This document shows positions 1,693 through 57,840 of a stretch of 64,000 nt of DNA, piece after piece. How positions within the stretch are numbered: the first letter of the stretch is position 1; each line of letters begins with the position of its first letter. The notes below the pieces were generated by a model, which was given only the letters and a program-made list of their open reading frames with translations, made no database searches and had not been told where the DNA came from. The position numbers and the translations under genes were made by a program. Source of the DNA: Phyllobates terribilis (Eukaryota); contig NW_027362769.1 of NCBI RefSeq assembly GCF_046119375.1, forward strand, positions 292,702,001 through 292,766,000, written 5' to 3'.

Positions 1693-1808
1693 TTTGGTGG
1701 TTAACTAATTCACAACTCTGGAGTTGTTTGCACAAAAAAACAATGGATGGTAACCGAGCAGAGCTGCGTGGCCAAACTGTGGTATTAGGCCAAAACTATT
1801 GGCTGGGT

Positions 1809-12270: not shown

Positions 12271-12731
12271 GGGTGGATCAGAACATTTTCATCACCTTTC
12301 ACAATCACCAATGGGACAAGGCAGGGATGTCCTCTGTCCCCTCTCTTATACATCCTAGTGACGGAGCACCTGCTCTCATCAATTCGCCATAACCCCAATA
12401 TTAGGTGGATTGAGGTGGGAGGCACCGAGTACAAGTGCTCTCTATTTGCTGATGATGTCCTAGTATATATCACTCAATCACATATATCCATCCCTGCTGT
12501 TATGGCTGAAATAGATCACTTTGTTACATGGTCAAATTTTAAAATCAATGCAGCGAAGTCTGAGGCCCTCGATGTCTCCCTCCCCAAATCCATATAGGAT
12601 TCCATCCAGTCCAACTTTCCCTTTGCCTGGCCCTCACAGGGTATCAAATACTTAGGAATTCCTATTCACAGAGACCTCTCCCATCTATGTTATCTTAATT
12701 TTGAGCCCTTTATTGAACAACTCCATACAGA
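12271..12731 (+). pseudogene. LINE-1 ORF2 reverse transcriptase fragment
   Basis: Translation includes NGTRQGCPLSPLL and CSLFADD, and after a stop continues with IKYLG, all typical of L1 RT. Both ends are abrupt and there is no poly(A). Confidence 0.9.
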
Positions 12732-12802: not shown

Positions 12803-14130
12803 CACTGTGTTCCAAATTATTATGCAAAAAGTGTTTAGGAGTGATAAGGGAAGAATTTGTTTGTTTGTCAGTTAAACTCATTGATGGTGATGTGTGTCAG
12901 GGCTCTTTATTTCACTGTAAGCAATTGCAGACACCTGTGCTAGATAGTTTGGCTGGTGTGTCCAATGAAAGGCAAGACTACTTAAGAAGGCTGTCTCACA
13001 TTATTAAGCAGCCTACATTTTCTGCCAAAATGGGAAAGAAAAAGGATGTGTCGGCTGCTGAGAAGCAACAAATTGTGGAGTGTTTAGGTCAATGCATGAC
13101 TACAATCAACATTGTGCGATGAACAGGATAAAGTGTCTTGGCAATCAAGAAGTATGTAGCTGATTCACAGTACACACGTGTGCCTGCTGATAAGGGCAAA
13201 TTGAGGACTCTTTCCTACAGGCAATTACGTCAGGTTAAAAGAGCAGCGGCAAAAAAGCCTTGTCATAGCAGCAGACAAGTTTTTGAAGCTGCTGGTGCCT
13301 CCAACGTCCCCCGAACAACAAGATGCAGGGTCCTTCAGAGGTTTGCAGCTGTGCATACGCCATCCTGTCGACCTCCTCTATCCACTTCACACAAGCAGAA
13401 ACGGCTCCAGTGGGCCAAACATTACATGAAGACTGATTTCAAAACTGTTTTGTTCACGGATGAGTGCCGTGCAGCGCTCGATGGTCCAGATGGATGGAGT
13501 GGAGGATGGCTGGTTGATGGACACCCCGCGCAAACACGGCTACAGCGCCAACAAGGAGGAGGTGGAGTAATGTTTTGGGCTGGAATCATGGGGAGAGAGA
13601 TTGTCGGCCCCTTTATGATCCCTGAAGGCGCTAAAGATGAACTCCATAATGTATGTGGATTTTCTCAAACAGCACTTCCTGCCATGGTTCAAGAAGAAGA
13701 ACCGTGTATTTCAGCAAGATCATTTTTTTGCATGATAATGCACCATCTCATGCTGCACATAAAACATCTGCATCTCTGGCTGATATGGGCATAAAATGGG
13801 ACAAACTTATGGTGTGACCCCCATGCTCCCCTGACCTCTACCCCATTCAGAACCTCTGGAGCATCATCAAAAGGAGTGTCTATGATGGCGGGAGGCAGTT
13901 CACATCTAAGCAACAGCTCTGGGAGGGTATTCTGTCCTCATGCAAAACAATTGAAGCAGAAACCATCCAAAACCTGACAAATTCAATGGACGAGAGAGTT
14001 CAGAAGCTCCTTTCGAACAAGGGGTCCTATGTGAAAATGTAACATCACCTAGAATAAAGTTTTGAGTTGAAAACTGTTTGATCTCAGTTTCTAATAACCT
14101 GCTAATGCTTATAATTTCAAAAATGACCAT
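12803..14130 (+). mobile_element. Tc1-related TRT-type (DD37E) transposon, decayed, right TIR missing
   Basis: Left TIR cactgtgttccaaattattatgcaaa follows TA at 12801-02. Transposase pieces MGKKKDVS (13030), VLFTDECR..LDGPDGW, then HDNAPSH...SPDLYPIQNLW. I count 37 residues between the second D and the E position (mutated to Q). Right boundary approximate. Confidence 0.85.
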
Positions 14131-14609: not shown

Positions 14610-17600
14610 TTACTCTCCCCAGGATGACACAGGGGTAGAAAAGTCGTTTCGGATCCATGATTTGTTCATCTTTATGAACGTGAGTCTGTCTACATTATCA
14701 GTGGAGAGCCGCGTGCGCTTATCTGTCAGCACACCACCAGCAGCGCTGAACACACGTTCAGACACACGTTCAGACAGAACGCTGGCTGCGGGGCATGACA
14801 AGATCTCCAAGGCGTAAGTGGCTAGCTCCGGCCATTTATCCAGATTGGAAGCCCAAAAAGAGCAAGGGTCCAGTGACACAGTCATGGCTTCAATGTTTAA
14901 TTGGAGATACTCCTGTACCATCGTCTCTAGGCGTTGACTATGTGTCAGACTTCTTGTCTCCTGTGGCCTTGCAAAGGATGGGCTAAAAAAGTGGTGAAAT
15001 GATTCCGCAAAATTGATGTTACCAGCAGATACTGTGGTTCTGTTACAGTTTGAGTGCTGAACACTTGACGGTCCCACGGTTGGCAAGTTGGAACTGTGAG
15101 ATTCACTACGTGCACCACTGGTGTTTTGTGGAAAAGCACATGTAAGATTCTGCAACAGTCTGCTGATACTCCTGCATGCGTGCATCCCTTTCTATGGCAG
15201 GAATAATTTCTGCAAATTTACTTTTGTACCGGAGATCTAACAGTGTGGCAATCCAGTAGTCAGGATTATTTCTAATTCTCACAATTCGAGGGTCATGTTG
15301 CAGGTAGTGCAGCAAGAAGGCACTCATGTGTGTTGCGCATCCAGGAGCACCAAGTCCCTGTTGTGTTGGTGGCGAGGTAACAATCATGATTCCTTCCTCT
15401 GTCCTCTCCCTCCAACCTCGCACAACAGAAATGTGATCAAGGTCTCCCTCATCTGATGAGTCTTCCATCAGTTCGTCCTCCACTTCTTCCTGGGCTCCTG
15501 CACCTTCGTCACTAGTTTGTTTGGCTGCTATCATGCGCCCTGGTAAAACCATCTCCCCCACCCTCACATGCCTGCCGCCTTGGTGCTGCCAACCGTCTGG
15601 ACCTTGCAGATGTTAGCCCTTCCGCATACAACTCCTCCTCCTCTACTTCCTCCACCTCCTCTTGTGCCACCACCTGATTCCGAATTCTGTTTAACATGTG
15701 CTCCAGAATGTAAATCACCGGAATAGTCATGCTGATAATGGCATCGTCAGCACTAAACATCTTCCTCGCCATTTCAAAACTGTGCAGAAGGGTGCATAGG
15801 TCCCTGATCTGAGACCACTCCTCCAGCGTGATTTGCCCCACCTCTGGATCTCGTTGGCCCAGGCTATACGTCAGAACGTATTGCACCAGGACTTGTCGGT
15901 GCTGCCACAGTCGCTGCAACATGTGCAGAGTTGAATTCCACCGGGTAGGCACATCGCATTTTAGCCGGTGAAGTGGCAGGCCCAACGACTTCTGTAGAGA
16001 TGTAAGTCACTGAGCTGCGGGATGCGAACGGCGGAAGTGAGCACACAGCGACCGTGCCCTCTGCAGAAGGCCATCTAGTCTGGGATAGTGGGCTAAAAAT
16101 TGCTGGACAACCAGGTTCAACACGTGAGCCATACAAGGCACGTGTGTGACATTGCCCCGGGGAAGGGCCGCACCCAGGTTTGCAGCATTGTCGCACACGG
16201 CCTTCCCTGGTTTCAGGTCCAGTGGAGACAACCATTCATGAAATTGGTTCTCCAGAGCTGACCACAACTCCTCAGCTGTGTGACTCACATTTCCCAGACA
16301 TTTCAAAGTTAAAACCGCCTGATGACGTTGAGCCCTACTGCCAGCATAGTAAGGAGGTGTGCAGGATCCCTTCTGCGCAGTTAGAAAGCTTGTGGCATGA
16401 CCAGACAGGCTTTGGGTGCAGGTGGAAGACCGAGAGGAGGTTGAGGAGGCTGAAGCAGTGGAGGAACTTTGACATAAAGAGGATTGACGCACAACTCGTG
16501 GGGACGGCAAGACTTGGACAGCAGCCCCTTGTCCTGCTGTCACCATAGTTACCCAGTGCCCAGTCAGCGACATGTAATGCCCCTGTCCATGCCTACTCGT
16601 CCAAGTGTCTGTGGTGAAATGCACCCTGTCACACACAGAGTTTCTCAAAGAAGCGGTGATGTTGTGTGCGAGATGCTGGTGGAGCGCAGGCACACCTTTC
16701 TTTGAGAAGTAGTGCCGACTGGGCATCTGGTACTGGGGCACTGCGACGGACATAAGGTCTCGAAAATCCTCTGTGTCCACCAGGCGGAAAGGCAGCATTT
16801 CTGTAGCCAAGAGCTTGCAGATGGTGAAATTCAACCTCTTAGCTTTCTCATGGCTAGGAGGAAATGGTCCTTTACTTGTCCACATCTGAGGGACCGAGGG
16901 CTGGCTATTGTGCTTAGACGCGGTTGATAAGGGTGTCCCCGGCAAACTGCCGGTCTGTGAGGAAGATGCAGGCGGACATGTTAGGTTGCCTTGATCCAAA
17001 GGTGGTGCTATCGATGTCGGACAGCGCTCAACACCAGCTGGTGTTACCACCTCCAAAGAAAATGATGACCTGCCAATCACGCTGGCTGTTGCGGGTAAAG
17101 AGGTGGCAGGTCTGCGCCCCAAAACAGGTGTGACTGCTGTCCCCCCAGTCACAGAGGATGAAGAGGCCGCGGATGCACAAGATATGGCAGACGGTGGTTG
17201 GCCCGGTCGGCTAGGCCGCATTGTAGCACACTGAGCTTCCCACTGCAACTTATGCTTCATGTCCATGTGCCGGTTCATGCATGAAGTACTCAAACTATGA
17301 ATTTTTTGGCCTCTACTTAGCTTTTGCTGACAAATGTTACAGATAACACGAGTTGGGTCATTTTTATCGATCTGAAAAAATGCCCAGCCTATGCAAGGCT
17401 TAGCACCCATGCGACCTGAAGAGCCACCACGACTTGTGGTGAGAGGCAGAGTTGTGTTTGAGGATGCAGTTGTTGACGTGCTTCCAGTACTACGTCTCTG
17501 TCCAGGAAGGCGCAACCTGACCTCGTCGTCACTAGTATCTTCCTCCACCTCCTCTGCTGACCTCATCTCTTGGCTGACTGTGGGTTGACAGTAAGTGGGA

Positions 17601-18323
17601 TCTCCAACCTCATCATCATCACTCTGTGCGTTATCACACCCGTCGTCCTCAGAGCCAACCTGTTCCTGCCCTGACAAAAAAACTAAAGTTGTCGCTCCAA
17701 TCAGGTATTTGAGTCTCATCATCATCTTCCTCATTTTCTCCACCAACAGGAGGTACAGTTTGGGAACGACATTATGGTCAGAACCTTCTGCGTCTGGTCC
17801 TGGATAAGACTCATAAAGATTCTGGCCATCAGTGCAGATCATTTCCTCGTCTGGATTCACAGAAGCGCTGGAGTCGACCTCTGTTTCCCAGGCTATAGTA
17901 TGAGTAAACAGCTCTGCAGATTCAAACATCTGTTCTACCTCATACTCAGATGGGCAGCTGGAGATTTGGGAGCTGTGAGGAAGCAAGTGCGATTGGGGTG
18001 ACACCTTTGAGGACTGGAGTATTTGTGATGTTGAAGTTGATGTGGAGGAGAGCCCACTTAAAGGAGCACTTGATATCCTTTGAAGCACCTGCTGTTTTTG
18101 TGCCTTATCTATCTGGAATTTGTAGCGATTGGCGTGGCCGTAAGAAAGGGATCTTATCACATTGTCCGCTAAAAGAAGTAAACATTTTAGTTTGGCTGGA
18201 AGATGGTCTTTCTTCTGCAGATGTTACTGTTGCTTTAACACCTACCCCACGGACACAACCTTTTTTCCCCTTCCCAACACGCCTATTCCCCTTTCCACCA
18301 GCAGCAGGACTTTTTCCACTCAT
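14610..18323 (-). pseudogene. hAT (Ac/ZBED-like) transposase, frameshifted
   Basis: ORF pieces 18105-18323, 16007-18160, 15512-15985, 15106-15567 and 14610-15185. They contain a BED finger (WAFF..CNICQQ..MNRHMDMKH), FTTDTWTS, CDNAAN, PCMAHVLNL, DVPTRWNST and the C-terminal dimerisation motif SCPAASVLSERVFS..KRTRLS. Confidence 0.95.
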
Positions 18324-18439
18324 TTTGGTGGTTAACTAATTCACAACTCTGGAGTTTTTTGCACAAAAAAACAATGGATGGAAACCGAGCAGAGCTGAGT
18401 GGCCAAACTGTGGTATTAGGCCAAAACTATTGGCTGGGT

Positions 18440-21035
18440 TAGATGCAGAAAATGATTATATTCAGTTTGCAACCTGATGGAGGTCAGTATAGATGGACTA
18501 ATAGAACAAGTCCTACACACAGCTAGAAGCCCAAATATTTTTTCAGAAGTAGATGCAGGAAAAAAATATATTCAGTTTGCAACCTGATGGAGGTCAGTAT
18601 AGATGGACTAATAGAGAAAGTCCCACACACTGCTAGAAGGCCAAATATTTTTTCAGAGCTAGATGCAGACAAAAAATTATTTTGAATTTGCAACCTGATG
18701 GAGGTCAGTATAGATGGACTAATAGAGAAAGTCCCACACACTGCTAGAAGGCCAAATATTTTTTCAGAGCTAGATGCAGAAAAAAATTATATTCAGTTTG
18801 CAACCTGATGGAGGTCAGTATAGATGGACTAATAGAACAAGTCCCACACACAGCTAGAAGCCCAAATATTTTTTCAGAGGTAGATGCAGATAAAAAATAT
18901 TTTTAATTTGCAACCTGATGGAGGTCAGTATAGATGGACTAATAGAAAAAGTCCCACACACTGCTAGAAGGCCAAATATTTTTTCAGAGCTAGATGCAGA
19001 AAAAAATTATATTCAGTTTGCAACCTGATGGAGGTCAGTATAGATGGACTAATAGAACAAGTCCTACACACAGCTAGAAGGCCAAATATTTTTTCAGAGG
19101 TAGATGCAGATAAAAATTATTTTTAATTTGCAGCCTGATGGAGGTCAGTATAGATGGACTAATAGAGAAAGTCCCACACACTGCTAGAAGGCCAAATATT
19201 TTTTCAGAGCTAGATGCAGACAAAAAATTATTTTTAATTTGCAACCTGATAGAGGTCAGTATAGATGGACTAATAGAGAAAGTCCCACACACTGCTAGAA
19301 GGCCAAATATTTTTTCAGAGCTAGATGCAGATAAAAATTATTTTTAATTTGCAACCTGATGGAGGTCAGTATAGATGGACTAATAGAGAAAGTCCCACAC
19401 ACTGCAAGAAGGCCACATATTTTTTCAGAGCTAGATGCAGAAAAAAATTATATTCAGTTTGCAACCTGTTGGAGGTCAGTATAGATGGACTAATAGAACA
19501 AGTCCCACACACAGCTAGAAGCCCAAATATTTTTTCAGAGGTAGATGCAGAAAAAAATTATATTCAGTTTGCAACCTGATGGAGGTCTGTATAGATGGAT
19601 TAATAGAACAAGTCCCACACACAGCTAGAAGCCCAAATATTTTTTCAGAGCTAGATGCAGAAAAAAATTATATTCAGTTTGCAACCTGATGGAGGTCTGT
19701 ATAGATGGATTAATAGAACAAGTCCCACACACAGCTAGAAGCACAATATTTTTTCAGAGGTAGATGCAGAAAAAAAATATATTCAGTTTGCAACCTGATG
19801 AAGGTCAGTATAGATGGACTAATAGAACAAGTCCCACACACTGCTAGAAGCCCAAATATTTTTTCAGAGCTAGATGCAGATATAAATTATTTTTAATGTG
19901 CAACCTGATGGAGGTCAGTATAGATGGACTAATAGAGAAAGTCCCACACACTGCTAGAAGGCCAAATATTTTTTCAGAGCTAGATGCAGAAAAAAATTAT
20001 ATTCAGTTTGCAACCTGATGGAGGTCAGTATAGATGGACTAATAGAACAAGTCCCACACACAGCTAGAAGCCCAAATATTTTTTCAGAGGTAGATGCAGA
20101 AAAAAATTATATTCAGTTTGCAACCTGATGGAGGTCTGTATAGATGGATTAATAGAACAAGTCCCACACACAGCTACAAGCCCAATATTTTTTCAGAGGT
20201 AGATGCACAAAAAAAATATATTCAGTTTGCAACCTGATGGAGGTCAGTATAGATGGACTAATAGAGAAAGTCCCACACACTGCTAGAAGGCCAAATATTT
20301 TTTCAGAGCTAGATGCAGATATAAATTATTTTTAATTTGCAACCTGATGGAGGTCAGTATAGATGGACCAATAGAGAAAGTCCCACACACTGCTAGAAGG
20401 CCAAATATTTTTTCAGAGCTAGATGGAGATAAAAATTATTTTTAATTTGCAACCTGATGGAGGTCAGTATAGATGGACTAATAGAGAAAGTCCCACACAC
20501 TGCTAGAAGGCCAAATATTTTTTCAGAGCTAGATGCAGAAAAAAATTATATTCAGTTTGCAACCTGATGGAGGTCAGTATAGATGGACTAATAGAACAAG
20601 TCCCACACACAGCTAGAAGCCCAAATATTTTTTCAAAGATAGATGCAGATAAAAATTATTTTTAATTTGCAACCTGATGGAGGTCAGTATAGATGGACTA
20701 ATAGAGAAAGTCCCACACACTGCTAGAAGGCCAAACATTTTTTCAGAGCTAGATGCAGACAAAAAATTATTTTGAATTTGCAGCGTGATGGAGGTCAGTA
20801 TAGATGGACTAATAGAACAAGTCCCACACACTGCTAGAAGGCCAAATATATTTTCAGAGCTAGATGCAGAAAAAAATTATATTCAGTTTGCAACCTGATG
20901 GAGGTCAGTATAGATGGACTAATAGAACAAGTCCCACACACTGCTAGAAGCCCAAATATTTTTTCAGAGCTAGATGCAGAAAAAAATTATATTCAATTTG
21001 CAACCTGATGGAGGTCAGTATAGATGGACTAATAG
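18440..21035. repeat. ~110-bp tandem array (about 23-24 units) in the 5' region of hAT copy B
   Basis: Same monomer as 1809-3642 but a longer array with a different variant order. Confidence 0.95.
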
Positions 21036-24573: not shown

Positions 24574-24995
24574 TGTTAGAACCTTGCTGTTAGGTTTTTT
24601 TTCCTTTGCTGGTCACATGACCTTGTTGGCCTATTTAATCCTGCTCCGCCCTTCTGGCTTTGCTGGACTTCATTGTATATCTACTTTCTAGCTAGCCTGT
24701 GCTCTGTATCTATCTCTGTTAGTTTGCTTGGTCTACGGACCTCTATGTTCTATCTATTTTGTTTGTTCGTCTGTCTGCTACTATTTCTGTTAGGAGGTGT
24801 CCCATATTCCTTCCAGTCCTTAGTACTTGTAGGGATTCCCTTCCCTCATCTATAGGTCTTCGTACAGACTAGATTAGGACTTTAGCAGGTCTGATCGCAG
24901 GATCAGGTTCCCTGTTACATCGTAGGGATTCAGCTGAGTCCTATAGTAGGGACAGATCTCCTCTCTTTCCTTAGCTTTGGTAGCAGAACATAACA
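24574..24995 (+). repeat. Gypsy-1 5' LTR
   Basis: tgttagaacc...cataaca. By eye it differs from the 3' LTR at one position (24594 G versus T). Confidence 0.97.
24632..24670 (+). promoter_or_regulatory. Putative LTR promoter: TATA-like box and predicted transcript 5' end
   Basis: TATTTAA at 24632. gctggactt begins 30 nt later (24662) and is complementary to the PBS position at 24998-25006. Confidence 0.65.
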
Positions 24996-25072
24996 GTAAG
25001 TCCAGCCTGCAAATTCTCTAAGGAAAGATTTTTTTTTGTTCCATCAAACACCTGCAGGGACTCTCTCTGGAA

Positions 25073-28000
25073 GTGGCCGAGCTCCGTCAGCACGTGAGTA
25101 ACTGTCCTGGAGCATATTTCTTGGAGCCTAAGGTATGTTTGCCGGATTTATTTTTTGGTGAACATCGAGAATTTTTTTCATTTAAAAATGCTTGCTTATT
25201 GTATTTTCGTTTGAGACCCAAGTCCTCTGGGGATGAATCCCAGCGCGTAGGGTTCATAATGTCACTTTTGCGCAAAGAGCCTCAGGAGTGGGCCTTTTCT
25301 TTGCAACCTAGTGATACATGCTTCAGATCAGTGGATAGTTTTTTTTCTGCTTTAGGACTATTATATGATGATCCTGACCGTGTGGCATCAGCTGAGACTG
25401 AGTTGAGACGTTTAAAGCAAGGATCGGGTAATGTGGAAAAATATTGTACTCATTTTCGTCGTTGGTCCACTCAAACAGGGTGGAACGATTCTGCTCTGAA
25501 AAGTCTATTTCTTGCTGGGCTCAGTGAAAGGGTTAAAGACCTGCTAATTGCTTATCCTACACCTGAGGATTTGCAACAGGCTATGCAATTAGCTATACGG
25601 GTGGATAGAAGACTGCGTGCTAGGGTTAATGAGAGCAAATCCTCTGCTATGTCAGTTTCTGGTTATGATAATGTGTGTACTAACAGTGGTGAACCGATGG
25701 AGATTGGATCGGTGGCACCTCGCTCTCAAGAAAAAGACCGTCGTTTTTCGGAAGGCTTGTGTTTCTATTGCGGAAAATCTGGTCATTTGATTAAAGGCTG
25801 TGAGCTTCGTATGAAGAAAGAAAAAAAAATGGTCAGTCACGCCCGTATTGCCTGTTTAAATTCCAAGGGTATATTTTTAGCTGCTTCCACGATTGCTCAG
25901 GAAAAATTAATGGAATTTCGGGTGTTTGTTGATTGCGGGTCTACACTAAATGTAATTGATGGGGGATTCGTGGAAAAACTCAATTTAAAACCTGAACCTT
26001 TATCATCCCCCATTGCTGTGGTTTCTGTGGATGGCTCCCCTTTGAAGAATATTACTCTCAAGGTCAGTGAATTTCCTCTCACTATTAATGGTGTTCACCA
26101 TGAGAAATTGGATTTGGTAGTGTTGAATAACTTGCCTTCTCCAGTAATATTGGGTTTGCCCTGGTTAAAATTTCACAATCCTGTACTGGATTGGTCTACC
26201 AGTGAAATTAAATCCTGGAGCCATAAATGTTATGACAAGTGTTGTAACGGGCGTATTGCAGCTTTGGATAGGGGAGAATTGCCTGTTCCTATTCAGGATT
26301 TTTGGAGAGTTTTTTCTGAGAAAGAATCGCAGGTTTTGCCTCCCCATAGAGACTATGATTGTTCTATTGAATTTGTCCCTGGAGCGACTCTTCCTAAAAG
26401 TCGTTTATTTAACCTTACTATTCCTGAGAGGAAGGCTTTGGAGGAATACATACAGACAAGTTTGGCCGCCGGTCACATTAGGCCCTCTAAGTCTCCTGTG
26501 GCGGTTGGATTTTTTTTTGTAAAAAAAAAGGACGGCGGTTTACGTCCTTGTCTAGATTTTCGTGAGATTAACAAAATTACGGTACGCAATCCTTACCCAC
26601 TGCCATTGATTCCTGATCTGTTTAACCAGTTATTGGGGGCCAAGTGGTTCTCTAAAATTGACCTTAAGGGGGCATACAATCTGTTGCGCATGAAGGAGGG
26701 TGATGAATGGAAGACTGCTTTTAACACTCCTGTGGGTCATTTTGAGAATCTGGTTATGCCTTTTGGTCTTACTAATGCTCCTGCATTTTTTCAGAATCTG
26801 ATTAATGACATCCTTAGACCTTTGATCGGTAAAAATGTGGTTGTGTATTTGGATGACATTTTGATTTATTCGCCAGATCTGGAGTCTCATTGGCGGAGCG
26901 TGCGTGAGGTATTACAGTTATTAATGGACAATTCGCTTTTTGCTAAGCTGGAGAAATGTGAGTTCGCTGTACAGAGAATTATTTTTTTGGGCTACATTAT
27001 CTCCAGCAAAGGTTTTGAGATGGATCCGGTTAAGGTTCAGGCTGTGCAGGAATGGCCTAGGCCTATTGGTTTGAAATCGATACAGAGGTTTTTGGGTTTC
27101 GCCAATTACTATAGAAAATTCATAAAAAATTTTTCTAGTATTGTCAAACCTCTGACTGATCTCACCAGGAAAGGTGCTGATGCGGTTCAGTGGTCTTCTG
27201 AGGCCATTGAAGCTTTTGTGTATCTCAAGGAGAGGTTCACCTCTGCTCCCATCCTTATGCAGCCTGATGTTACTAGGCCGTTTTTGGTTGAGGTTGATGC
27301 TTCCTCTGTGGGGGTTGGCGCAGTATTGTCTCAGGATAACGGGGATGGATTACATCCCTGTGCCTTTTTTTCAAAAAATTTTTCGGAGACTGAATTGAAT
27401 TACGATGTTGGTAATCGGGAATTATTGGCTATTAAACTCGCATTTGAACACTGGCGCCACTTCTTGGAAGGTGCGGAATTTCCCGTTCAGGTTCTTACGG
27501 ATCATAAAAATCTGATATATCTTGATGCTGCCAAGCGCCTGAATGCCCGTCAGGCTAGGTGGGCACTGTTTTTCTCGCGGTTTAATTTCTCCGTTACTTA
27601 CATCCCTGGTACTAAGAATGTTAAGGCGGATGCCTTGTCTCGCAGTTTTTCTCCCATAGTCGGTGCTGAGAAAGAGGAAAACATTTTACAAGAAGGTGTT
27701 GTGATAGCTGCTTTAGACTCCGTTTTGGAAGATGAGATTCTTAAAGCTCAGGAGAATGCCCCATCTAACACTCCTCATGGGAGGTTGTTTGTGCCTGGGA
27801 CCTTTAGGAGAGATTTGTTTGTTGAGTGTCACGAATCTCGGTTGGCAGGTCATCCCGGAATCTCTGAGACCAAGAGACTGGTGGGTCGCAGTTTTTGGTG
27901 GCCTGGATGGCAGAAGGAAGTCATTAAGTGGGTGCGCCAATGTACTATATGTGCTAGATCTAAGTCCTCACATACTCCTGCTGCGGGGTTGCTTTGTCCT

Positions 28001-29194
28001 TTGGAGGTCCCCAGTGCTCCTTGGACACATTTGGCTATGGACTTTATAACTGACCTTCCCCCCTCTGAGGGTTTTACTGTCATCTGGGTGGTCGTGGACC
28101 GTTTTAGCAAGATGTGTCACTTGGTTCCCTTCGTCAAACTGCCCTGCGCTAAAACTCTCGCTAAGACCTTTGTCAAAGAAATTGTCAGACTTCATGGCGT
28201 TCCTACTGACATTGTTTCTGATAGGGGTCCTCAGTTCGTGGCTCGTTTTTGGCGTGCCTTTTGTGACAGGTTGGGAATTCATTTGTCATTTTCGTCCGGA
28301 TATCATCCTGAATCTAATGGCCAGACAGAAAGGAAAAACCAGGATGTTGAGCAGTTCTTGCGTTGTTTTGTGGCAGACAATCAAGAGGGGTGGTCTGAGT
28401 TTCTGCCACTTGCCGAATTTGCTCTGAACAATCATACATCTTCTTCTGCTGGTTGTTCACCTTTTTTTTGTTGTTCTGGGAGACATACGTCGTTTGGGTC
28501 GTTCTCCAAGTTGGGATCTGCCATGCCTGAGGAGGAGAATTTTTCCGGTGATTTGGAAAGAGTTTGGACGGATGTGCGTGGTAATCTTCAGGAGGCCAAC
28601 AGAAAATCTAAAGACTACTTTGATAGGAAACGACAGGAGGTTTTGTTCGCTGTTGGTGACATGGTTTGGTTGTCCTCTAGGAATCTGCGGTTGAGGATTC
28701 CTTCTAAGAAATTGGGTCCCAAGTTTGTGGGGCCCTTTAAGGTGCTTCAGGTTGTCAACCAATCTGCTGTTAGGCTGGAGGTTCCTACCTCCTGGAGAAT
28801 TAATCCGGTCTTTCATGTCTCTCTGTTAAAAAAAGCTGTTGTGTCGGATGGTGACGCCTCTGCCTCTGTTCCTCCGGTGGTGGAGGACGGGGAATATGAA
28901 ATTTCTCGCATCCTTGACTCTAGACGGTATAGAGGTAGTTTGCAGTATCTTGTGGCCTGGAAAGGTTTCGGACCCGAGGATAACTCTTGGGTGAGGTCAG
29001 ATGATGTTTCCGCGTCCAGACTTATCAGAGCGTTTCACAGGAGATTTCCTGATAAGCCTGGTCCTAGGGGAGGTACTGTTAGAACCTTGCTGTTAGTTTT
29101 TTTTTCCTTTGCTGGTCACATGACCTTGTTGGCCTATTTAATCCTGCTCCGCCCTTCTGGCTTTGCTGGACTTCATTGTATATCTACTTTCTAG
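25073..29194 (+). CDS. Gag-Pol polyprotein (gag, CCHC knuckle, protease, RT, RNase H, integrase, chromodomain), 1373 aa
   Basis: Uninterrupted ORF with CFYCGKSGHLIKGC, VDCGS, YLDDILI, EVDASSVG..TDHKNL, HESRLAGH..CTIC, MDFIT/SDRGPQF/GQTERKN, GPKFVGPF and YEISRILDSR..YLVAWKGFGPEDNSW. It starts at GTG; the first ATG is at 25259. Confidence 0.95.
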   Translation: MAELRQHVSNCPGAYFLEPKVCLPDLFFGEHREFFSFKNACLLYFRLRPKSSGDESQRVGFIMSLLRKEPQEWAFSLQPSDTCFRSVDSFFSALGLLYDDPDRVASAETELRRLKQGSGNVEKYCTHFRRWSTQTGWNDSALKSLFLAGLSERVKDLLIAYPTPEDLQQAMQLAIRVDRRLRARVNESKSSAMSVSGYDNVCTNSGEPMEIGSVAPRSQEKDRRFSEGLCFYCGKSGHLIKGCELRMKKEKKMVSHARIACLNSKGIFLAASTIAQEKLMEFRVFVDCGSTLNVIDGGFVEKLNLKPEPLSSPIAVVSVDGSPLKNITLKVSEFPLTINGVHHEKLDLVVLNNLPSPVILGLPWLKFHNPVLDWSTSEIKSWSHKCYDKCCNGRIAALDRGELPVPIQDFWRVFSEKESQVLPPHRDYDCSIEFVPGATLPKSRLFNLTIPERKALEEYIQTSLAAGHIRPSKSPVAVGFFFVKKKDGGLRPCLDFREINKITVRNPYPLPLIPDLFNQLLGAKWFSKIDLKGAYNLLRMKEGDEWKTAFNTPVGHFENLVMPFGLTNAPAFFQNLINDILRPLIGKNVVVYLDDILIYSPDLESHWRSVREVLQLLMDNSLFAKLEKCEFAVQRIIFLGYIISSKGFEMDPVKVQAVQEWPRPIGLKSIQRFLGFANYYRKFIKNFSSIVKPLTDLTRKGADAVQWSSEAIEAFVYLKERFTSAPILMQPDVTRPFLVEVDASSVGVGAVLSQDNGDGLHPCAFFSKNFSETELNYDVGNRELLAIKLAFEHWRHFLEGAEFPVQVLTDHKNLIYLDAAKRLNARQARWALFFSRFNFSVTYIPGTKNVKADALSRSFSPIVGAEKEENILQEGVVIAALDSVLEDEILKAQENAPSNTPHGRLFVPGTFRRDLFVECHESRLAGHPGISETKRLVGRSFWWPGWQKEVIKWVRQCTICARSKSSHTPAAGLLCPLEVPSAPWTHLAMDFITDLPPSEGFTVIWVVVDRFSKMCHLVPFVKLPCAKTLAKTFVKEIVRLHGVPTDIVSDRGPQFVARFWRAFCDRLGIHLSFSSGYHPESNGQTERKNQDVEQFLRCFVADNQEGWSEFLPLAEFALNNHTSSSAGCSPFFCCSGRHTSFGSFSKLGSAMPEEENFSGDLERVWTDVRGNLQEANRKSKDYFDRKRQEVLFAVGDMVWLSSRNLRLRIPSKKLGPKFVGPFKVLQVVNQSAVRLEVPTSWRINPVFHVSLLKKAVVSDGDASASVPPVVEDGEYEISRILDSRRYRGSLQYLVAWKGFGPEDNSWVRSDDVSASRLIRAFHRRFPDKPGPRGGTVRTLLLVFFSFAGHMTLLAYLILLRPSGFAGLHCISTF

Positions 29195-29498
29195 CTAGCC
29201 TGTGCTCTGTATCTATCTCTGTTAGTTTGCTTGGTCTACGGACCTCTATGTTCTATCTATTTTGTTTGTTCGTCTGTCTGCTACTATTTCTGTTAGGAGG
29301 TGTCCCATATTCCTTCCAGTCCTTAGTACTTGTAGGGATTCCCTTCCCTCATCTATAGGTCTTCGTACAGACTAGATTAGGACTTTAGCAGGTCTGATCG
29401 CAGGATCAGGTTCCCTGTTACATCGTAGGGATTCAGCTGAGTCCTATAGTAGGGACAGATCTCCTCTCTTTCCTTAGCTTTGGTAGCAGAACATAACA
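29077..29498 (+). repeat. Gypsy-1 3' LTR
   Basis: Direct repeat of 24574-24995, followed by TSD CCCAG. Confidence 0.97.
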
Positions 29499-35011: not shown

Positions 35012-36600
<1,589 letters not shown>

Positions 36601-38238: not shown

Positions 38239-40074
38239 TTAAAAATTGGAAAAAAATTTAAAAATACACATAATACTTTTTGCATATCGCTGTTGCCTTG
38301 CCTCATTTTTCTTCCTTGGCATGTACTTAGATGGTATTTTTACTTGTGTCTTTTTTGGACAGGACGATCTAATTTGGTTTATAACCAAAAATAAAAATGA
38401 TATCTACAAATTAGAGCTGGGCAAAATTATTCATGTTGATTTGAATTCTACTTGAATTTTTTTAAAAAAATCTGCATTCTAGAAAATACAGATTATTTTG
38501 TAATTTGCTTTGCATGAGTTTAGCAACATGGGAGCAATCTGTGGCCAATATATTGCAGAACAATAGATCGATGCTAAAGGTTAAAGAGAAAAACAAAAGC
38601 TACTCACCCTGCTGCTCACCTTTCCGGCTGGGGCTTCTGGCTACAATGGGGCCTTGAAGTTCACTGGGCATGCTCTGCAGCCTACTCACATCCGAAAGTT
38701 CCAGTCTAAAGTGAACAGATGGCCGGATATGACACGTGATAGAGGTGCAGAGGACAAACGGCAGAGAGGAAGCCGGAGTGGACGGAGAGGTGAGCAGTAA
38801 GATGAGTATACGCGTTTTTTATATAGTTTACATCTTGTGTTTATGTATCCTCTTGTGTCTGAATAAGGGACATTAAATTTGCAGAGATTACCTTCTCTGT
38901 ACATCAAATTTCTAGGTAAAATCAACACTTACAGGTGAGTTTGAATTTTGCCTGGTTCGCTGATCTTTACTACACATTTAACTATGAAGGATCGCTTTGC
39001 AACACCTGTTTAAGTAGTCAATTTTGAGATTTGTGCATGCTCCACCAATATCAAGTGTGCACAGTTGTTGCATTAGAATTTTTTGCGCCATGTGTGATCT
39101 ACCTAGCCCCAGAGAATGTGCAATGAGCTTCATGGCTTCCTTGTGGTCATAAGTCCCTGTGACCCTCTGAGCCAGGGTAAATCTTGATGTGAGAATCAGG
39201 CTGCATGGGGATGGAAGGGGTGTGACAAGGAACTCAGGCCATTTCCCACAAAGAAGTAACTGGGAAGAGGTTGTTGGCCTCAGAAATACACAGCATTTTA
39301 GATGTGTGGCTAAAACATTGTATAGGGCAAAATATGCTTTTCCTGCTGTCAGCTGAGGAGCAGGCAATAATGTTATTGTTGCAGTTGGAGGATCAATAGA
39401 ACCTGAAAGCTGTGTGGTGATCGTGGTGGCAGGGAAGCCTATCTGTATCTCATTTGTGGGATATTTTTTTCCATGTTGCTGGGGGACTAGAAGACTGCAG
39501 AGTGCAGGCTGTGCTGTTGGAAAATAAGTTGGGTACATCCAAGGCGTAGCTAGTAGTGATGAGCGAGCACTAAAATGTTCGGGTACTCGTTGCTCGAGTC
39601 GAGCAAATTGGAATGCTCGAGTGCTCGGTCCGAGTAACGATCCCAATGTAAGTCTATGGGAAACATTTTTCCAGTGGCCCCCCCCCCTGGCGGTCTGCAG
39701 AGGGCCTAAAAATTGCTCAAATGACATGGAAACAGAATGGGGAGGACCCCTGGAAGCATCTCTGACTCCCAGGTCACTGCTGTCAACAATGTTGTCTGAG
39801 GTATTACTCCACTTTTACGGACTCACAATAAAACATACAAAAATGAAACCAAAATGGATTTTCCTGGGAAATATGTCAAGGAACATCCTTTTCAGGGTAA
39901 TGACTTGTATTTAAGGCAAAATAAATAACCAAAAACAAAAATGGTTCCACCACACCATGGGCTATGTTCACAGGTGGCGTTTTTTATGTGTTTTTGCACT
40001 TTTGCATTGCTTTCAATGGTGAAAAATATATTCACCGGTAAATGCCATATTAACGTTGTACTACTTTATCTTGC

Positions 40075-41152
40075 TGTAGCGTCGGCGTCCCTGCCTCCTG
40101 CTAGGCAGGGACGCTGTTCCCCTCACCTCTCCGCTCCATGCCCGGCGTCCTCCTCCCGCTCTGCTGGCAGCGCGCGCTGCTTCCCGGCCACTGTGTTTAG
40201 GGCGCGCGCGCTCCCCCTCTCTTAAAGGGGCAGCGCGCGCCGTCCTAAGGAGTCCCCGGCCAATGGCCGGAGGACCTCACCATATATAAGGCACCTCCTC
40301 CAAAATGGAGGTGCCCAAGCAATGTTGTTGCAAAGCCTTCACTCTGCTTCAACCCTCAGGTCCCGTTACCAGTTACCTGCCAGTCACCTGCCAGATTCCT
40401 GCTTGATACCTGCCTGATATCCGCTTACCTGCTTGCAAGCCTGCGGTCCGACGGTCTGCCTTCCGACACCTGTCAGTCTGTCTATGGACCAGCCTGCCCG
40501 CTCACCTGGGAGCGCTCACCTGCTACCTGCCTGCTAGCCTACCTGGAGGCTCTGCCGTCACTTGCCGTGACCACCTGCCAATCCAGAGACTCTTGCCCGC
40601 TCACCTGGGAGCGCTCACCTGCTACCTGCCTGCTAGCCTACCTGGAGGCTCTGCCGTCACTTGCCGTGACCACCTGCCAGTCCAGAGACTCTTGCCCGCT
40701 CACCTGGGAGCGCTCACCTGCTACCTGCCTGCTAGCCTACCTGGAGGCTCTGCCGTCACTTGCCGTGACCACCTGCCTGTCCTGAGACTCTTGCCCGCTC
40801 ACCTGGGAGCGCTCACCTGCTACCTGCCTGCTAGCCTACCTGGAGGCTCAGCCGTCACTTGCTGTGACCACCAGCCCGTCCAGAGACTCTTGCTCGCTCA
40901 CATGGGAGTGTCCACCTGCTACCTGTCTGCTAGTCTACCCAGAGACTGTCCCTGTCACTTGCTGTGACTACCTGCCCTTCTACCCAGACACTGTCCCTGT
41001 CACTTGCCGTGACTACCTGCCCTTCTACCCAGAGACTGTCCCTGTCACTTGCCGTGACTACCTGCCCATCTTCCCTGGGAGCCACCCACTTCCTTACAAG
41101 GACCGCCCCCTTGTATAGTTGCTCAGAGGTTTCGTCTCCCAGACCCGTTACA
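40075..41152 (+). repeat. Gypsy-2 5' LTR (1078 bp) with 99-bp and 45-bp internal tandem repeats
   Basis: 99-bp units at 40496, 40595, 40694, 40793 and a partial at 40892; 45-bp units at 40941, 40986 and 41031. Confidence 0.95.
40260..40322 (+). promoter_or_regulatory. Putative LTR promoter: CCAAT, TATATAA and predicted transcript start
   Basis: ccaat near 40260; TATATAA at 40283; gccc(a/g)agcaa begins 30 nt later. Same layout in the 3' LTR (45572 and 45602). Confidence 0.7.
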
Positions 41153-41165
41153 GTTTGCTCGGGCC

Positions 41166-42115
41166 ATGGAACCCGGTGGCACCCAAGCTCCCTAGCTCTC
41201 GGACCTATGTCATGAACTGTCCCGTCAGAGGTCCCAACAGGAGTCCATCCTGAGTCATCTGCGGAATGTCAACTCTCGCCTGGACACTCTTACTGCTCCA
41301 CCAGCAACCACCGCTAGTGTCATGACTCGCAGCCCGGCAGCGCCGCTGCCCACCAATACCATGTCATCCTGCCCTGGACCCCGGCTTTCTGCACCTCCAC
41401 GCATCGGAGGCGACCCCGCTCAAGCTCGGGGCTTCATAAACCAGTACACCCTGCACTTTGAACTCCTGTCCCACCAGTTTATCTCCGACCGGGCCAAAGT
41501 AGCCTTCATCATGTCCCATCTCACGGGGGAGGCACTGGCTTGGCTAAATCCTCTTTGGGAGAGAGGAGACCCCTGGTGTCCAACCTGCCAGCCTTTCTCA
41601 CGGCTTTCCGGAAAGTCTTCGACGAACCCGGATGGAAGACCTCATCCGCATCATCTCTGCAACGCCTCCATCAAGGAAATCTCACCGTGGGCCAATATGC
41701 CGTACGGTTCCGTACCCTTGCTTCGGAGCTGGCCTGGGATAATGACGCCCTGGTGTCTGTCTTTTGGGAGGGTCTGTCCGGCCGTATTAAAGATGAACTC
41801 GCCGGTCGGGACATACATACCACTCTCGACGACTTAATAACTCTTGCCACCCGGATTGACATCCGGTTCCACGAACGCGCCAAAGAGGTCACCCGTGAGA
41901 GGAGGTTTCCACGTCTAGCCTCTACCTTTCAGAAACCTGTCACTTCTCCCGCTACTCCCCAGGCGCACTCACCCGAGCCTATGCAGGTCGACCAGACCAA
42001 GATGGTCAAAACTCGTCAAGAGTTACGCCGTGCTGAGGGGAGCTGCTTCTACTGTGGCAGTAAGGAGCACCGGATCCGTTCCTGCCCGGAGAGGTCGGGA
42101 AACGCCTGTGTCTAG
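41166..42115 (+). pseudogene. Gypsy-2 gag (frameshifted) ending in a CCHC zinc knuckle
   Basis: ORF pieces 41322-41837 (GDPAQARGF..RAKVAFIMSHLTGEALAW) and 41540-42115 ([20 protein letters not shown]). Confidence 0.9.
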
Positions 42116-42157
42116 GATCGCTCAGAGAGGTCGTCCTAGACAAGAGTAAACCCTCTC
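42097..42157 (+). promoter_or_regulatory. -1 programmed ribosomal frameshift signal (G GGA AAC plus predicted pseudoknot)
   Basis: The heptamer is in the gag frame, the pol ORF is open in the -1 frame from it, and a 9-bp stem starts 5 nt downstream. Confidence 0.8.
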
Positions 42158-45100
42158 CATCCCTGTTGCTGTCGGTCTCTATCATCTGCGGGGAGAACCG
42201 TTATTTTGAACTAGCCCAACTTGACTCTGGAGCTGCCGGAAATCTCATTTCTCAGTCTCTGGTAGAGAAATACCGCATTCCCACCAAACCTCTAGCTGTA
42301 CCCTTATCTGTCGCTGCCGTGGATGGGGGCCTCTTACCACATCCCATTCAACTCATCACCGAATCCATAACCCTGCAGGTGGGAATGCTGCATTCTGAGA
42401 GCATCTTCTTTCATGTTCTGCCTGGACTCTCTCATGCCCTCTTACTAGGCCTACCTTGGCTTCAGAGACATGCACCCGTGCTTGATTGGCAGACCGGAGA
42501 AGTCCTTCGCTGGGGACAGGCCTGCCATAAGACTTGTTTAGTTCCCGTCCATCCTGTTCGTCATTCTCCTACTCCAGCCAATCTACCTGGTCTTCTGGCT
42601 CCTTATTGGTCGTATGCGGACGTCTTTAATAAAAAGGAGGCAGAGACATTACCCCCTCATAGACCATACGACTGCCCAATCGACCTGATGCCCGGCGCTA
42701 CTCCTCCCCGTGGGCGCATTTACCCTTTGTCCGCTGCTGAGACCCGATCCATGTCAGAATATATTGAGGAGAATCTGGCCCGGGGATTCATCCGGAAATC
42801 TACTTCCCCGGCGGGAGCAGGTTTCTTCTTCGTCAAAAAGAAGGACGGCTCACTCCGTCCTTGTATAGACTATAGAGGCCTTAACCAGATCATGGTGAAG
42901 AATAAATACCCCCTTCCGCTTATTCCGGAATTATTTGACCGTCTGAGGGGGGCTAGAATCTTCACCAAGCTGGACCTCCGTGGGGCGTATATTCTGGTCC
43001 GTATCCGTCAGGGGGATGAATGGAAGATGGCATTCAACACCCGGACGGCCACTATGAATACCTGGTAATGCCCTTCGGTCTCTGTAACGCTCCCGCCGTC
43101 TTTCAAGAGTTGGTCAATGACATCTTCCGGGACCTTCTCTACTCCTGCGTAGTGGTGTACCTGGACGACATCTTGGTCTTCCCTCCGGATCTCCCCACAC
43201 ACCGGAGGGATGTTCGTCAGGTTCTGCTCAGGCTCAGGCAGAACCACCTCTACGCTAAATATGAGAAGTGCCTCTTTGAGCAGACCTCGCTTCCGTTTTT
43301 GGGCTACATAATTTCTCAGACCGGCCTACGAATGGATCCTGAAAAACTGTCTGCCATCGAGAAGTGGCCTCGACCAGAGGGGTTGAAGGCTTTTCAGCGG
43401 TTCCTGGGCTTCGCCAACTACTACCGCCTCTTCATACCGCACTTCTCTTCCCGGACTGCCCCAATCTCGGCGCTCACCCGTTAGGGCACTAATCCCAGAG
43501 AATGGCCGCCCGAAGCTGAGGAAGCCTTTCTTTACTTAAAACAGGCTTTCTCTTCCGCCCCGGTGCTACATCGCCCGGACGGCAACAAACAATTCTTCCT
43601 GGAAGTTGACACCTCCTCCTCTGGAGCCGGAGCGGTACTTACCCAAAAATCATCTTCCGGGAGAATGGTAACTTGCGGCTTCTTCTCCAAACTCTTCTCC
43701 TCTTCCGAGCACAACTATTCTATAGGAGACCGAGAGTTACTGGCCATTAAGCTGGCATTGGAGGAGTGGCGTTACCTGCTTAAGGGGGCTCTTCACCCGG
43801 TAATAATTTACACGGACCACAAGAACTTGGCTTACCTCGAGAGTGCCCAGAGACTTAACCCGCGCCAAGCCCGGTGGTCCTTGTTTTTTGCTCGCTTTGA
43901 TTTTGTTCTTCATTTTCGCCCGGCTGACAAAAACATCAAAGCTGACGCCTTGTCTGATCCTTCCTGGTGTCTGATCTTGAGGAGGAACCTAAACACATCA
44001 TCGATCCCGCCAGAGTAATGCAGGTGGCCCCCGTGAGTCTAAATCGTCTCCCTCCCGGAAAGACGTTCGTAACGGTACCTGATCGGGAGAAGATCCTACA
44101 CTGGGGTCACTCGTCTAAGCTTGCTGGCCATGCCGGTCAGAAAAAGACCCTCCAGCTTATCACCCGGCACTACTGGTGGCCTACCCTGCACAAGAACGTA
44201 ATAGACTTTGTTTCTGCCTGTGTGTCCTGCGCCCGCAACAAGGTTCCGAGACTACTGCCAGCCGGTCGCCTCCTTCCTCTTCCAGTACCTGCTGCCCCCT
44301 GGCAGCATATAGCTATGGACTTCATAACAGATCTCCCTGTCTCTGCCGGTTGTACGGTCATTTGGGTGCTCGCTGACCGCTTTTCCAAAATGGCTCATTT
44401 CATTCCCCTGCCAGGCCTCCCGTCTGCACCCGAGCTGGCTAAAGACTTTATCCGCCACATCTTCCGTCTCCATGGCCTGCCCCTCCATATCGTGTCGGAT
44501 CGTGGGGTTCAGTTCACCTCACGCTTCTGGAGAGCCACATGTAAGCTGCTAGACGTCACCCTGGACTTCTCCTCCGCATACCACCCACAGTCCAATGGTC
44601 AAGTGGAGCGGATCAATCAGATCCTGACCAGTTACCTCCGGCACTTCGTTAATGCCCACCATTCAGACTGGGTGGATCTCCTGCCATGGGCCGAATTCTC
44701 TTACAATAATCACGAGAGCGAATCTTCCTCCCAATCCCCGTTTTTTGTAGTCTTCGGTCAGCATCCTCGGATCCCTTTTCCCGTCTTCACCTCGGTGGAC
44801 AATCCGGCTGCGGAATCTCTCATTAGCAAATTTTCCTCCATTTGGGAGAGTACCCGATCCGCACTCCTTCAGTCGTCCGAGCGGATGAAAAAACACGCTG
44901 ACAAAAAACGCCTGGATCCTCTACAATTCCGTCCTGGAGATAAAGTCTGGCTCTCGTCCAAGTATGTCCGGCTCAAGATTCCTTCCTACAAGTTAGGGCC
45001 TCGGTTCATCGGCCCACTAGAAGTTATCAAACAAATCAACCCGGTGGCCTATAAATTGAAACTCCCTGCCAACTTGCGGATCCCTAACTCCATGTATCTC

Positions 45101-45330
45101 TCCTCAAACCCGTGGTACTTAACTCTTTTTCCAAGTCTACAGGTACGCCTCCTGCTCCGGTTTCCGCTGAAAACGAGTTTGAGGTAGAGAAAATTCTGGC
45201 CACCAAAAGGGTAAGAGGAAAAACCTTTTTTTCAGGTAGATTGGAAGGGGTTTGGTCCTGAGGAGAGAACGTGGGAGCCCCGGGAGAACATCCATGGTTC
45301 TCTCATCCTTGATAAATTTCTGTCTGGCCT
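42097..45330 (+). pseudogene. Gypsy-2 pol (protease, RT, RNase H, integrase, chromodomain), several frameshifts and a stop
   Basis: [54 protein letters not shown], and a chromodomain remnant FEVEKIL..WKGFGPEERTWEP. In-frame TAG at 43482. Confidence 0.93.
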
Positions 45331-45360
45331 AAAAAAGTGGGGGCCTAAAGGGGGGGGTAA

Positions 45361-46287
45361 TGTAGCGTTGGCGTCCCTGCCTCCTGCTAGGCAGGGACGC
45401 TGTTCCCCTCACCTCTCCGCTCCATGCCCGGCGTCCTCCCGCTCTGCTGGCAGCGCGCTGCTTCCCGGCCACTGTGCTTAGGGCGCGCGCGCGCGCGCGC
45501 TCCCCCTCTCTTAAAGGGGCCGCGCGCGCCGTCCTAAGGAGTCCCCGGCCAATGACCGGAGGACCTCACCATATATAAGGCACCTCCTCCAAAATGGAGG
45601 TGCCCGAGCAATGTTGTTGCAAAGCCTTCACTTTGCTTCAGCCCTCAGGTCCCGTTACCAGTTACCTGCCAGTCACCTGCCAGATTCCTGCTTGATACCT
45701 GCCTGATATCCGCTTACCTGCTTGCAAGCCTACGGTCCGATGGTCTGCCTTCCGACACCTGTCAGTCTGTCTATGGACCAGCCTGCCCGCTCACCTGGGA
45801 GCGCTCACCTGCTACCTGCCTGCTAGCCTACCTGGAGGCTCTGCCGTCACTTGCCGTGACCACCTGCCAGTCCAGAGACTCTTGCCCGCTCACCTGGGAG
45901 CGCTCACCTGCTACCTGCCTGCTAGCCTACCTGGAGGCTCTGCCGTCACTTGCCGTGACCACCTGCCTGTCCAGAGACTCTTGCCCGCTCACCTGGGAGC
46001 GCTCACCTGCTACCTGCCTGCTAGCCTACCTGGAGGCTTTGCCGTCACTTGCTGTGACTACCTGCCCTTCTACCCAGAGACTGTCCCTGTCACTTGCCGT
46101 GACTACCTGCCCTTCTACCCAGAGACTGTCCCTGTCACTAGCCGTGACTACCTGCCCTTCTACCCAGAGACTGTCCCTGTCACTTGCCGTGACTACCTGC
46201 CCGTCTTCCCTGGGAGCCACCCGCTTCCTTACAAGGACCGCCCCCTTGTATAGTTGCTCAGAGGTTCCGTCTCCCAGACCCGTTACA
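45361..46287 (+). repeat. Gypsy-2 3' LTR (927 bp)
   Basis: Direct repeat of the 5' LTR with fewer 99-bp units and roughly ten substitutions in the non-repetitive part (by eye). Confidence 0.95.
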
Positions 46288-46429
46288 CTTGCCATGTGGT
46301 GTGTGAGACATGATCAGACACATACTGTTTCATTTATGAAGGAGGGATTCTGAAAGTCACAAACACTATTTTTATAGGGCGATCAGGAGGCCCTTACAAT
46401 TCTTAAAGGGCCAGCAGTCGGCTATGCTT

Positions 46430-55899: not shown

Positions 55900-56905
55900 T
55901 TTTAGGCCCTAATTTTTGAAAATGTGGAGAATGAAGATTTGGTCTCTCAATCCATTGGGTTGGCTGTAGTGGAAGAGGTGTCGGTCCCTATTATACTACT
56001 TATACTCTAGTGAAATTGATGCCATTTTGGCAATTTTAGACCCAAATGTTTTCAAATGGGAACACTCCTGATTGGGTCTCCATCTACTTATCTACTTACT
56101 GGGTTGGCTGTAGGGGAAGAGGTGTCATTGCTAATTGTACAATTTCTACTGTACTGAAATTGATGCCACTTTGTTGGTGTCTGCCAGTAATTTTTAGAAA
56201 TATGGGGAATCCTGATTGGGTCTCCATTTATTGGGTTATCTGTAGTGGAAAAGGTGTCGGTCCCCATTGTACTACTTATACTCTAGTGAAATTGATGCCA
56301 CTATTGTGGTTTTATGTCAAAATGTTTTCAAACTGGAACAGTCCTGATTGGGTCTCGATCTACTGTGTTGGCTGTAGGGGAAGAAATGTCATTGCTAATT
56401 GGCCCTAATTTAGGGAAATGTGAACACTCTTGATTGGGTCTCCATGTGCTGTGTTGGCTGCAGTGGAAGAGGTTTTGGTCTCCTTTACAATAGTTATACT
56501 CTAGTGAAAATATTTTTTTGGTTTTGATATTGTTCTCCACACAGGAGTACACAGACCTGATAAACTCAACATGGGTATATAAGGCATACACATCTCACCT
56601 TAAAATTGTTTGGGGCAGATATTCTTCACACAGGTGTACATAGACCTGATAAACTCAACATGGGTATATATAGCAGGCTACATCTCAGCTTAAAATTGTT
56701 GGGGCAGATATTTTTCTCCACACAGCGGTATACAGACCTGATAAACTCAACATGGATATATAAAGCAGACTGCATCTCAGCTTAAAATTGTTTTGGGCAG
56801 ATAATCTTCTCCACACAGGAGCACACAGACCTGATAAAATGGGTATTTAAAGCATACTATATCTCAGCTTAAAATTTTTGGGGGCAGATATTCTTCTCCT
56901 CACAG
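55900..56905. repeat. Two degenerate tandem arrays in the hAT-3 3' region (~130-bp-scale, then ~95-bp units)
   Basis: Recurring gattgggtctccat..ggctgtagtggaagaggtgtc..ctctagtgaaattgatgcc (55900-56500), and acagacctgataaactcaacatgg..cttaaaattgttt.gggcagat four times (56530-56905). Unit sizes approximate. Confidence 0.75.
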
Positions 56906-56929
56906 GGGGGAAAAAAAAGATTGAGTCCG

Positions 56930-57840
56930 AGCAGCTTCCTGACCCTCAACTGTGCTGTGCTGTCATGGCAAGAAGAAAAGGAGGGTGACTCTGAGGGCGA
57001 GGAATGGGATAACACATTGGATGATGATCAGGTTGCACATACAACTTGGTGTGAACCCAGATGCACGCAGCTGAGTAGCTCATCTGAAGAGGTGGAGGAG
57101 GAAGACGAGGAGGTTATTTTGCGTCTTTTGGCGCAGACACGGAGTGATGGAAGCACGAGGAGCACTGCATTTTTATCCACAACCGTGGCAGTAACCAGCA
57201 GCAGTAGTGAGTCTGCAACTTGCAGGGGCAGCAAGGGTTGCCTAGCCTCGGCCTTTTTTGAGACTGCAAAGGATGAGCCAGTTCACGTAATCTGCAAACT
57301 TTGCGATAAAAAACTTAGTAGAGGGAAAAAGTGCAGTAATTTGACTACTACATGCATGAACCTTCACATGCGCAATCAACATGCATTACTCTGGCCATCT
57401 CACTGCGATAAAATGCGGACCAGCCTACCTCAACAACCATCAGCTGCCCCATCAACTGCATTCGCTGCTTCTTCCTCTTCCTCTGTTACCATGCCAAGTA
57501 TTTGCATGAATGTCTCCCACTGCAGAACCTCTGCTTCTCTACCTGCTACAGTCAGGCTGAGTGAGAGCCCGTCAGCTGTAATGGAAGTGGACATGCCTGC
57601 TGTGTTTGTTTCACCGAGCACACCACATGTTTCTCAATCCACCGTAACATGTCCCCCTGCACCTCACTTACAGTCCAGCAGTTTGTCCGTTTCACCGTGC
57701 TCTGCCCTCTCTCAGCATTGCAGCCAGCTCTCAGTCCCGCATTTGTAGTCACATAAAAGATTGTTTCCTCCCACACATGACAAAGCTAAGAGGTGGAAAT
57801 CAATCATCTCCAATCTGATGGCTACAGAAATGGTGGTATC
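56930..57840 (+). pseudogene. hAT transposase N-terminal/BED-finger fragment
   Basis: ASAFFETAKDEPVHVICKLCDKKLSRGKKCSNLTTTCMNLHMRNQH, then FPPTHDKAKR..NLMATEM, parallel to copy B. Confidence 0.88.

Follow-up and report, generated by a model that had tools for sequence, protein, structure and literature searches.

A Ty3/gypsy chromovirus family of Phyllobates terribilis that likely primes reverse transcription with the 5′ end of its own RNA

The window, the whole 64,000-nt stretch of Phyllobates terribilis DNA analysed here, contains an LTR element from a family in which the first 10 bases of the element's own RNA very likely serve as the primer for reverse transcription, in the manner of Tf1. 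Self-priming is read from the pairing of two sequence words and is well supported by their covariation across lineages. In the proposed mechanism, transcription would start at the G of a 10-nt LTR word, 30 nt past a TATA box, and the RNA 5′ end would fold back over the R-U5 loop to reach the primer-binding site. RNase H would then cut after the primer and free its 3′ OH, a cleavage shown for Tf1 (PMC7175516) and presumed here by analogy; Pfam identifies an RNase H domain in the element, as this step requires. Self-priming across a loop of ~840 nt had been proposed in an earlier, sequence-only reading of this DNA. The loop (842 nt from primer start to primer-site start) and the pairing have stood, now with covariation behind them. 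What they do not bring is surprise, since the mechanism is known for Tf1/sushi elements, vertebrates included; the element is, as judged from its sequence, a further member of that group.

Anatomy of the element and of its primer-binding site

The Pfam domains between the LTRs follow the gag-PR-RT-RH-IN order of Ty3/gypsy elements, and a chromodomain (PF00385, E 2.9e-07) lies C-terminal to the integrase in a shifted frame at 45215-45478. We read the element as a decayed copy of a high-copy Ty3/gypsy chromovirus family of the vertebrate branch. Its features are listed below, together with the second chromovirus of the window, Gypsy-1.

40070..40074, +, left target-site duplication CTTGC, 5-bp
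40075..41152, +, 5′ LTR, 1,078 nt, TG...CA
40283..40289, +, TATA box of the 5′ LTR, TATATAA; a TATA-like word lies at comparable distance in 10/10 lineage representatives
40290..40315, +, 9-bp inverted repeat between the TATA box and the predicted start; right arm YY1-like
40313..40322, +, predicted self-primer, 5′ LTR copy, with one G>A at 40317 (CpG)
40495..41075, +, tandem repeats, 99-nt (4.9 copies) and 45-nt (3.2 copies), the bulk of the loop
41128..41135, +, predicted U5 arm, a possible 'pretzel' arm that would pair with the leader at 41166-41173
41155..41164, +, primer-binding site, 2 nt past the LTR; C at 41165 next
41166..42118, +, gag: DUF4939 and Retrotrans_gag (Pfam), CCHC motif (seen in translation)
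42097..42103, +, slippery heptamer G GGA AAC; its phase fits a -1 gag-pol frameshift, with a predicted hairpin downstream
42097..45330, +, pol: protease, RT, RNase H, integrase, SH3, chromodomain; 3′ end approximate
45347..45357, +, polypurine tract, from its sequence
45361..46287, +, 3′ LTR, 927 nt; TATA at 45572-45578, primer word at 45602-45611
46288..46292, +, right target-site duplication CTTGC, 5-bp
24574..29498, +, Gypsy-1, second chromovirus lineage; 9-nt word at 24662-24670, primer site at 24998-25006

The copy is broken in both genes: in gag, codon 10 is a stop and the frame shifts near 41,580, and pol is interrupted near 43,041, 43,482, 43,955 and 45,090-45,215. The two LTRs are 97.8% identical over 919 aligned positions, with 7 of the 20 substitutions of the CpG type. 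The slippery heptamer and the base that follows it are kept in 33/39 family matches, frameshifting being predicted here from sequence. Neither AATAAA nor any of eight common variants (nine hexamers in all) occurs in either LTR (40075-41152, 45361-46287).

The primer-binding site, TTGCTCGGGC at 41155-41164, has its exact reverse complement at 45602-45611 in the 3′ LTR, and the 10-mer and its complement each occur once in the window. Both LTRs have TATATAA 30 nt ahead of the word, from 45572 in the 3′ LTR and from 40283 in the 5′ LTR. The 5′ LTR word is GCCCAAGCAA (40313-40322), in which the A at 40317 makes one mismatch to the primer site. The sequence-only reading had described the exact 10-mer, the 30-nt spacing and the single mismatch, all of which hold at their coordinates. 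It had also likened the geometry to that of Gypsy-1, where we find a 9-nt word in the same arrangement.

Covariation of the primer word with the primer site

A single exact pairing could be chance complementarity in a GC-rich LTR: 23 of 3,000 dinucleotide shuffles of the 3′ LTR give some exact 10-nt complement, in a test that accepted words at offsets 0-5 and did not require the TATA position. Against this stand the controls in which words were slid along the leader of this element, where 0/286 reach 10 nt, the fixed position of the word, and its covariation with the primer site. For the last, which the sequence-only reading had suggested as a check, we used 120 fetched 10-kb regions plus the window; the many regions in which no LTR pair could be detected were set aside. 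Ten lineage representatives, picked as copies with an intact match, carry 8 distinct words of 9-10 nt, each being the complement, at offset 2, of the primer site in its own element. The word lies 29-31 nt past a TATA-like box in 10/10 representatives, by a loose pattern defined after the sequences had been seen. Every word of the ten starts with GC and is preceded by a pyrimidine, and the loops measure 192-703 nt. Compensatory changes of a single pair distinguish the sister lineages GCTAGAGTAT / GCTTGAGTAT / GCCTGAGTAT, and a second sister set, GCGCTCAGAT / GCGCTCTGAT, shows another.

Slid controls reached equal length in 0-3/286 words, and matches between lineages were of at most 8 nt except where the word is common to them. 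Two plant-type elements used as controls gave matches of 5 and 7 nt. Among the metagenome relatives (36 of 80 loci examined), nine loci of five lineages showed an 8-11-nt match at offsets 1-2; the one exception has offset 4, at a locus whose LTR boundary had been set 2 nt too early. The top 30 PF03732 loci belonged for the most part to a single near-identical family and yielded no usable junctions. With the same-offset matches of the metagenome relatives added to a fixed position and eight covarying words, we give chance complementarity a negligible probability.

A host tRNA, or a fragment of one, would be the usual primer, as most LTR elements are primed by tRNA (PMC6317226), and the match to the LTR would then be incidental. 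The 30 tRNA loci retrieved from this genome were all tRNA-Lys(TTT), so that the tRNA comparison, internal fragments included, covers tRNA-Lys alone, which leaves this explanation some room. Within that scope, the best match of the retrieved tRNA-Lys sequences to the primer site is 5 nt. No TGG, the site for a mature tRNA 3′ end, occurs at offsets 0-5 from the LTR, the first one being at offset 14. Above all, eight different words each follow the word of their own LTR, which a host primer does not explain. We consider the host-tRNA explanation largely refuted and very improbable.

A C stands directly 3′ of the primer site in 10/10 representatives, and the genomic base ahead of the primer is never G in these ten. 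Of the five metagenome lineages, three have C after the primer site, one has A and one has G. Reverse transcriptases can copy the RNA cap. We raise tentatively, as an idea that is rather less likely to be right than wrong, that vertebrate self-priming chromoviruses use the capped 5′ end itself as primer and that this C pairs with, or was copied from, the m7G cap. PMC3877366 reports a preference for adding C at cDNA ends and no more than that, and the C may instead be plain inheritance of a GCC motif. If the capped end were the primer, the C would mark the start site in the genome, and a 10-bp duplex could close over loops of about 190 to 1,350 nt.

Family copies, predicted start and RNA folding

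The family comprises at least 138 scored integrase matches of 96-100% identity, from which two sets of copies were read. The first consists of 30 loci chosen by their likeness to the LTR-leader junction, with the window's own copy included. In this set, the 5′ LTR word is intact in 26/30 and the primer site matches exactly in 25/30; the remainder for the word are two loci without a TATA match, one with the word deleted, and the present copy. The second set took 40 of the 138 integrase matches independently of the junction and gave 35 junctions. Primer sites are exact in 28/35 of these, and the word is intact in 29/33 readable 5′ primers and 30/33 readable 3′ primers. Among the 31 copies of this set with both LTRs readable, none of the 6 primer variants is common to both LTRs, the pattern that post-insertion changes should give. 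Copy L279 shows the same G>A independently, in its 3′ LTR.

Based on these counts, we interpret the 40317 mismatch as private CpG decay after insertion. Variants of the primer site could, for their part, derive from mutated parental primers, an origin indistinguishable from CpG decay. The sequence-only reading had called self-priming impaired in this copy. The weaker duplex (-12.8 kcal/mol, compared with -18.8 kcal/mol for the intact pairing) makes it thermodynamically plausible that the mismatch would weaken priming from this copy. No special meaning attaches to it, because it would be ordinary post-insertion decay in a copy already without intact gag and pol.

Three further observations concern individual copies. 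L005 has a second LTR end ~1.3 kb into its internal region, which suggests an internal deletion or a recombination product. In the sister subfamily formed by L171, L205 and L206, the pairing reaches 11 nt (offset 1), the length of the Tf1 primer. A 12-nt match in L281 lies beyond the LTR repeat of that copy and was left out of the count.

The hairpin that the sequence-only reading had placed over the predicted start, with 8 bp, does exist; its arms are 9 bp (40290-40298 / 40307-40315) and most of it sits 5′ of the predicted start, which would keep it out of the 5′ end of the priming RNA. It is more stable than 200/200 shuffles, and its 9 pairs are kept in 96/108 TATA-anchored family matches. 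The hairpin is specific to this clade, a sister lineage having a weaker counterpart. Its right arm agrees with the YY1 consensus (PMC13017510) at 9/12 letters, and since the arm is YY1-like, the hairpin may be a promoter element.

This YY1-like word also weighs against our preferred explanation, for it stands just 5′ of the predicted start and YY1 is strongest near or downstream of starts. The pairing might then be selected with transcription starting further upstream, the word being used after processing, or pairing in a structural or regulatory role. Consistent with this are the YY1-like word that closely precedes the primer word in this clade and the folding predictions, in which primer pairing drops to <=0.02 once the upstream hairpin is included in the transcript. 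Nevertheless, the TATA-like distance of 29-31 nt is kept in all ten representatives, the pairing ends exactly at the pyrimidine|G step, and the 6/10 representatives that have no YY1-like word keep the geometry. An upstream start is, in our judgement, unlikely, and a start at the G of the word is the reading we retain.

For that start, the predicted pairing of the primer peaks at 0.07 in this copy and at 0.28-0.83 in seven intact copies, where it is predicted to compete with local folds. Lineages A, A', B, C and Gypsy-1 each have a predicted U5-leader stem adjoining the primer site, with changed letters in one clade. The stem of Gypsy-1 has a better energy than 100/100 shuffles; that of this copy is matched in stability by 66/100 shuffles and is no better than cross-lineage pairs. 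The loop from primer start to LTR end spans 522-1,354 nt in the first set and 623-1,172 nt in the second. It is filled with the 99-nt and 45-nt tandem repeats, through which its length varies, and loop length seems to matter little to the pairing. Two other candidates were rejected. A U3 hairpin masking the 3′ primer copy is not a rule, as 17-128 of 200 shuffles mask as many bases in 11 representatives. A spliced primer is unneeded, the word being contiguous.

Placement among known elements and surroundings in the window

The closest database proteins are from frogs, then from fish and reptiles. In a quick integrase tree of 49 rows, the element falls among fish, frog and reptile chromoviruses (support 87) and the plant rows form a separate clade (98); the tree holds no named sushi-ichi or Tf1 sequence, and the Tf1/sushi assignment is made by clade content. 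Self-priming is described as a common feature of Tf1/sushi elements, with a three-duplex 'pretzel' (PMC10085805), and self-primers of this group are known from yeast and vertebrates (PMC6317226). For Tf1 it has been demonstrated, and it is implicated across a range from fungi to vertebrates (PMC4600332). Butler et al. 2001 and Lin and Levin 1997 are cited here via PMC10085805, PMC6317226 and PMC4600332; PMC3601003, PMC5341516 and PMC11042837 add little for comparison. Our literature search, outside of which lay the primary papers (Levin 1995-98, Butler 2001), returned nothing on point for amphibian self-priming and nothing on a role of the cap in self-priming.

The element resembles the vertebrate Tf1/sushi elements (sushi-ichi; V-clade of GyDB) in its chromodomain integrase, CCHC gag and vertebrate host, in its -1 gag-pol site, and in a primer site complementary to its own LTR and not to a tRNA. 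A -1 gag-pol frameshift is reported to predominate in Tf1/sushi elements outside fission yeast (PMC10085805). Its long and variable loop (about 520-1,350 nt), lengthened by tandem repeats, may set it apart from them, as may the C after the primer site. Also close are the fission-yeast elements Tf1 and Tf2 (Schizosaccharomyces pombe) and Tj1 (S. japonicus). In Tf1 the primer is of 11 nt and the LTR of 358 bp, and there is a single ORF that lacks a CCHC motif (PMC7175516, PMC10085805). The primer here is of 10 nt (11 in the sister subfamily), the family LTRs are roughly 760-1,590 nt, and there is a frameshift site.

Gypsy-1 has one open frame of 1,390 codons and LTRs that are 99.8% identical, which together indicate a very recent insertion. 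Elsewhere in the window, 1-3642 and 16634-20265 are 95%-identical stretches with 110-nt tandem arrays, and overlapping frames with BED finger and hAT dimerisation domains lie at 14613-18223 (-) and 56873-57745 (+). These stretches are probably hAT transposons with internal minisatellites. Tc1/Sleeping Beauty-like transposase frames are located at 35352-36395 (347 codons, open) and 13132-13794, and a lone reverse transcriptase fragment of a different retroelement at 11815-12597. Six small unplaced contigs of the assembly (L062, L065, L066, L070, L071 and L073) carry LTR elements with tRNA-type primer sites, which we take to be of plant style. The L071 integrase groups with a Lolium protein (support 97; quick tree), and the small contigs may hold plant contamination.

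The element reveals no new mechanism, and its long variable loop and the C after the primer site are modest extras. It offers a clean natural covariation series of 8 words in an abundant family suited to RNA end mapping, and the copies in this genome indicate that the length of the loop is only loosely constrained.
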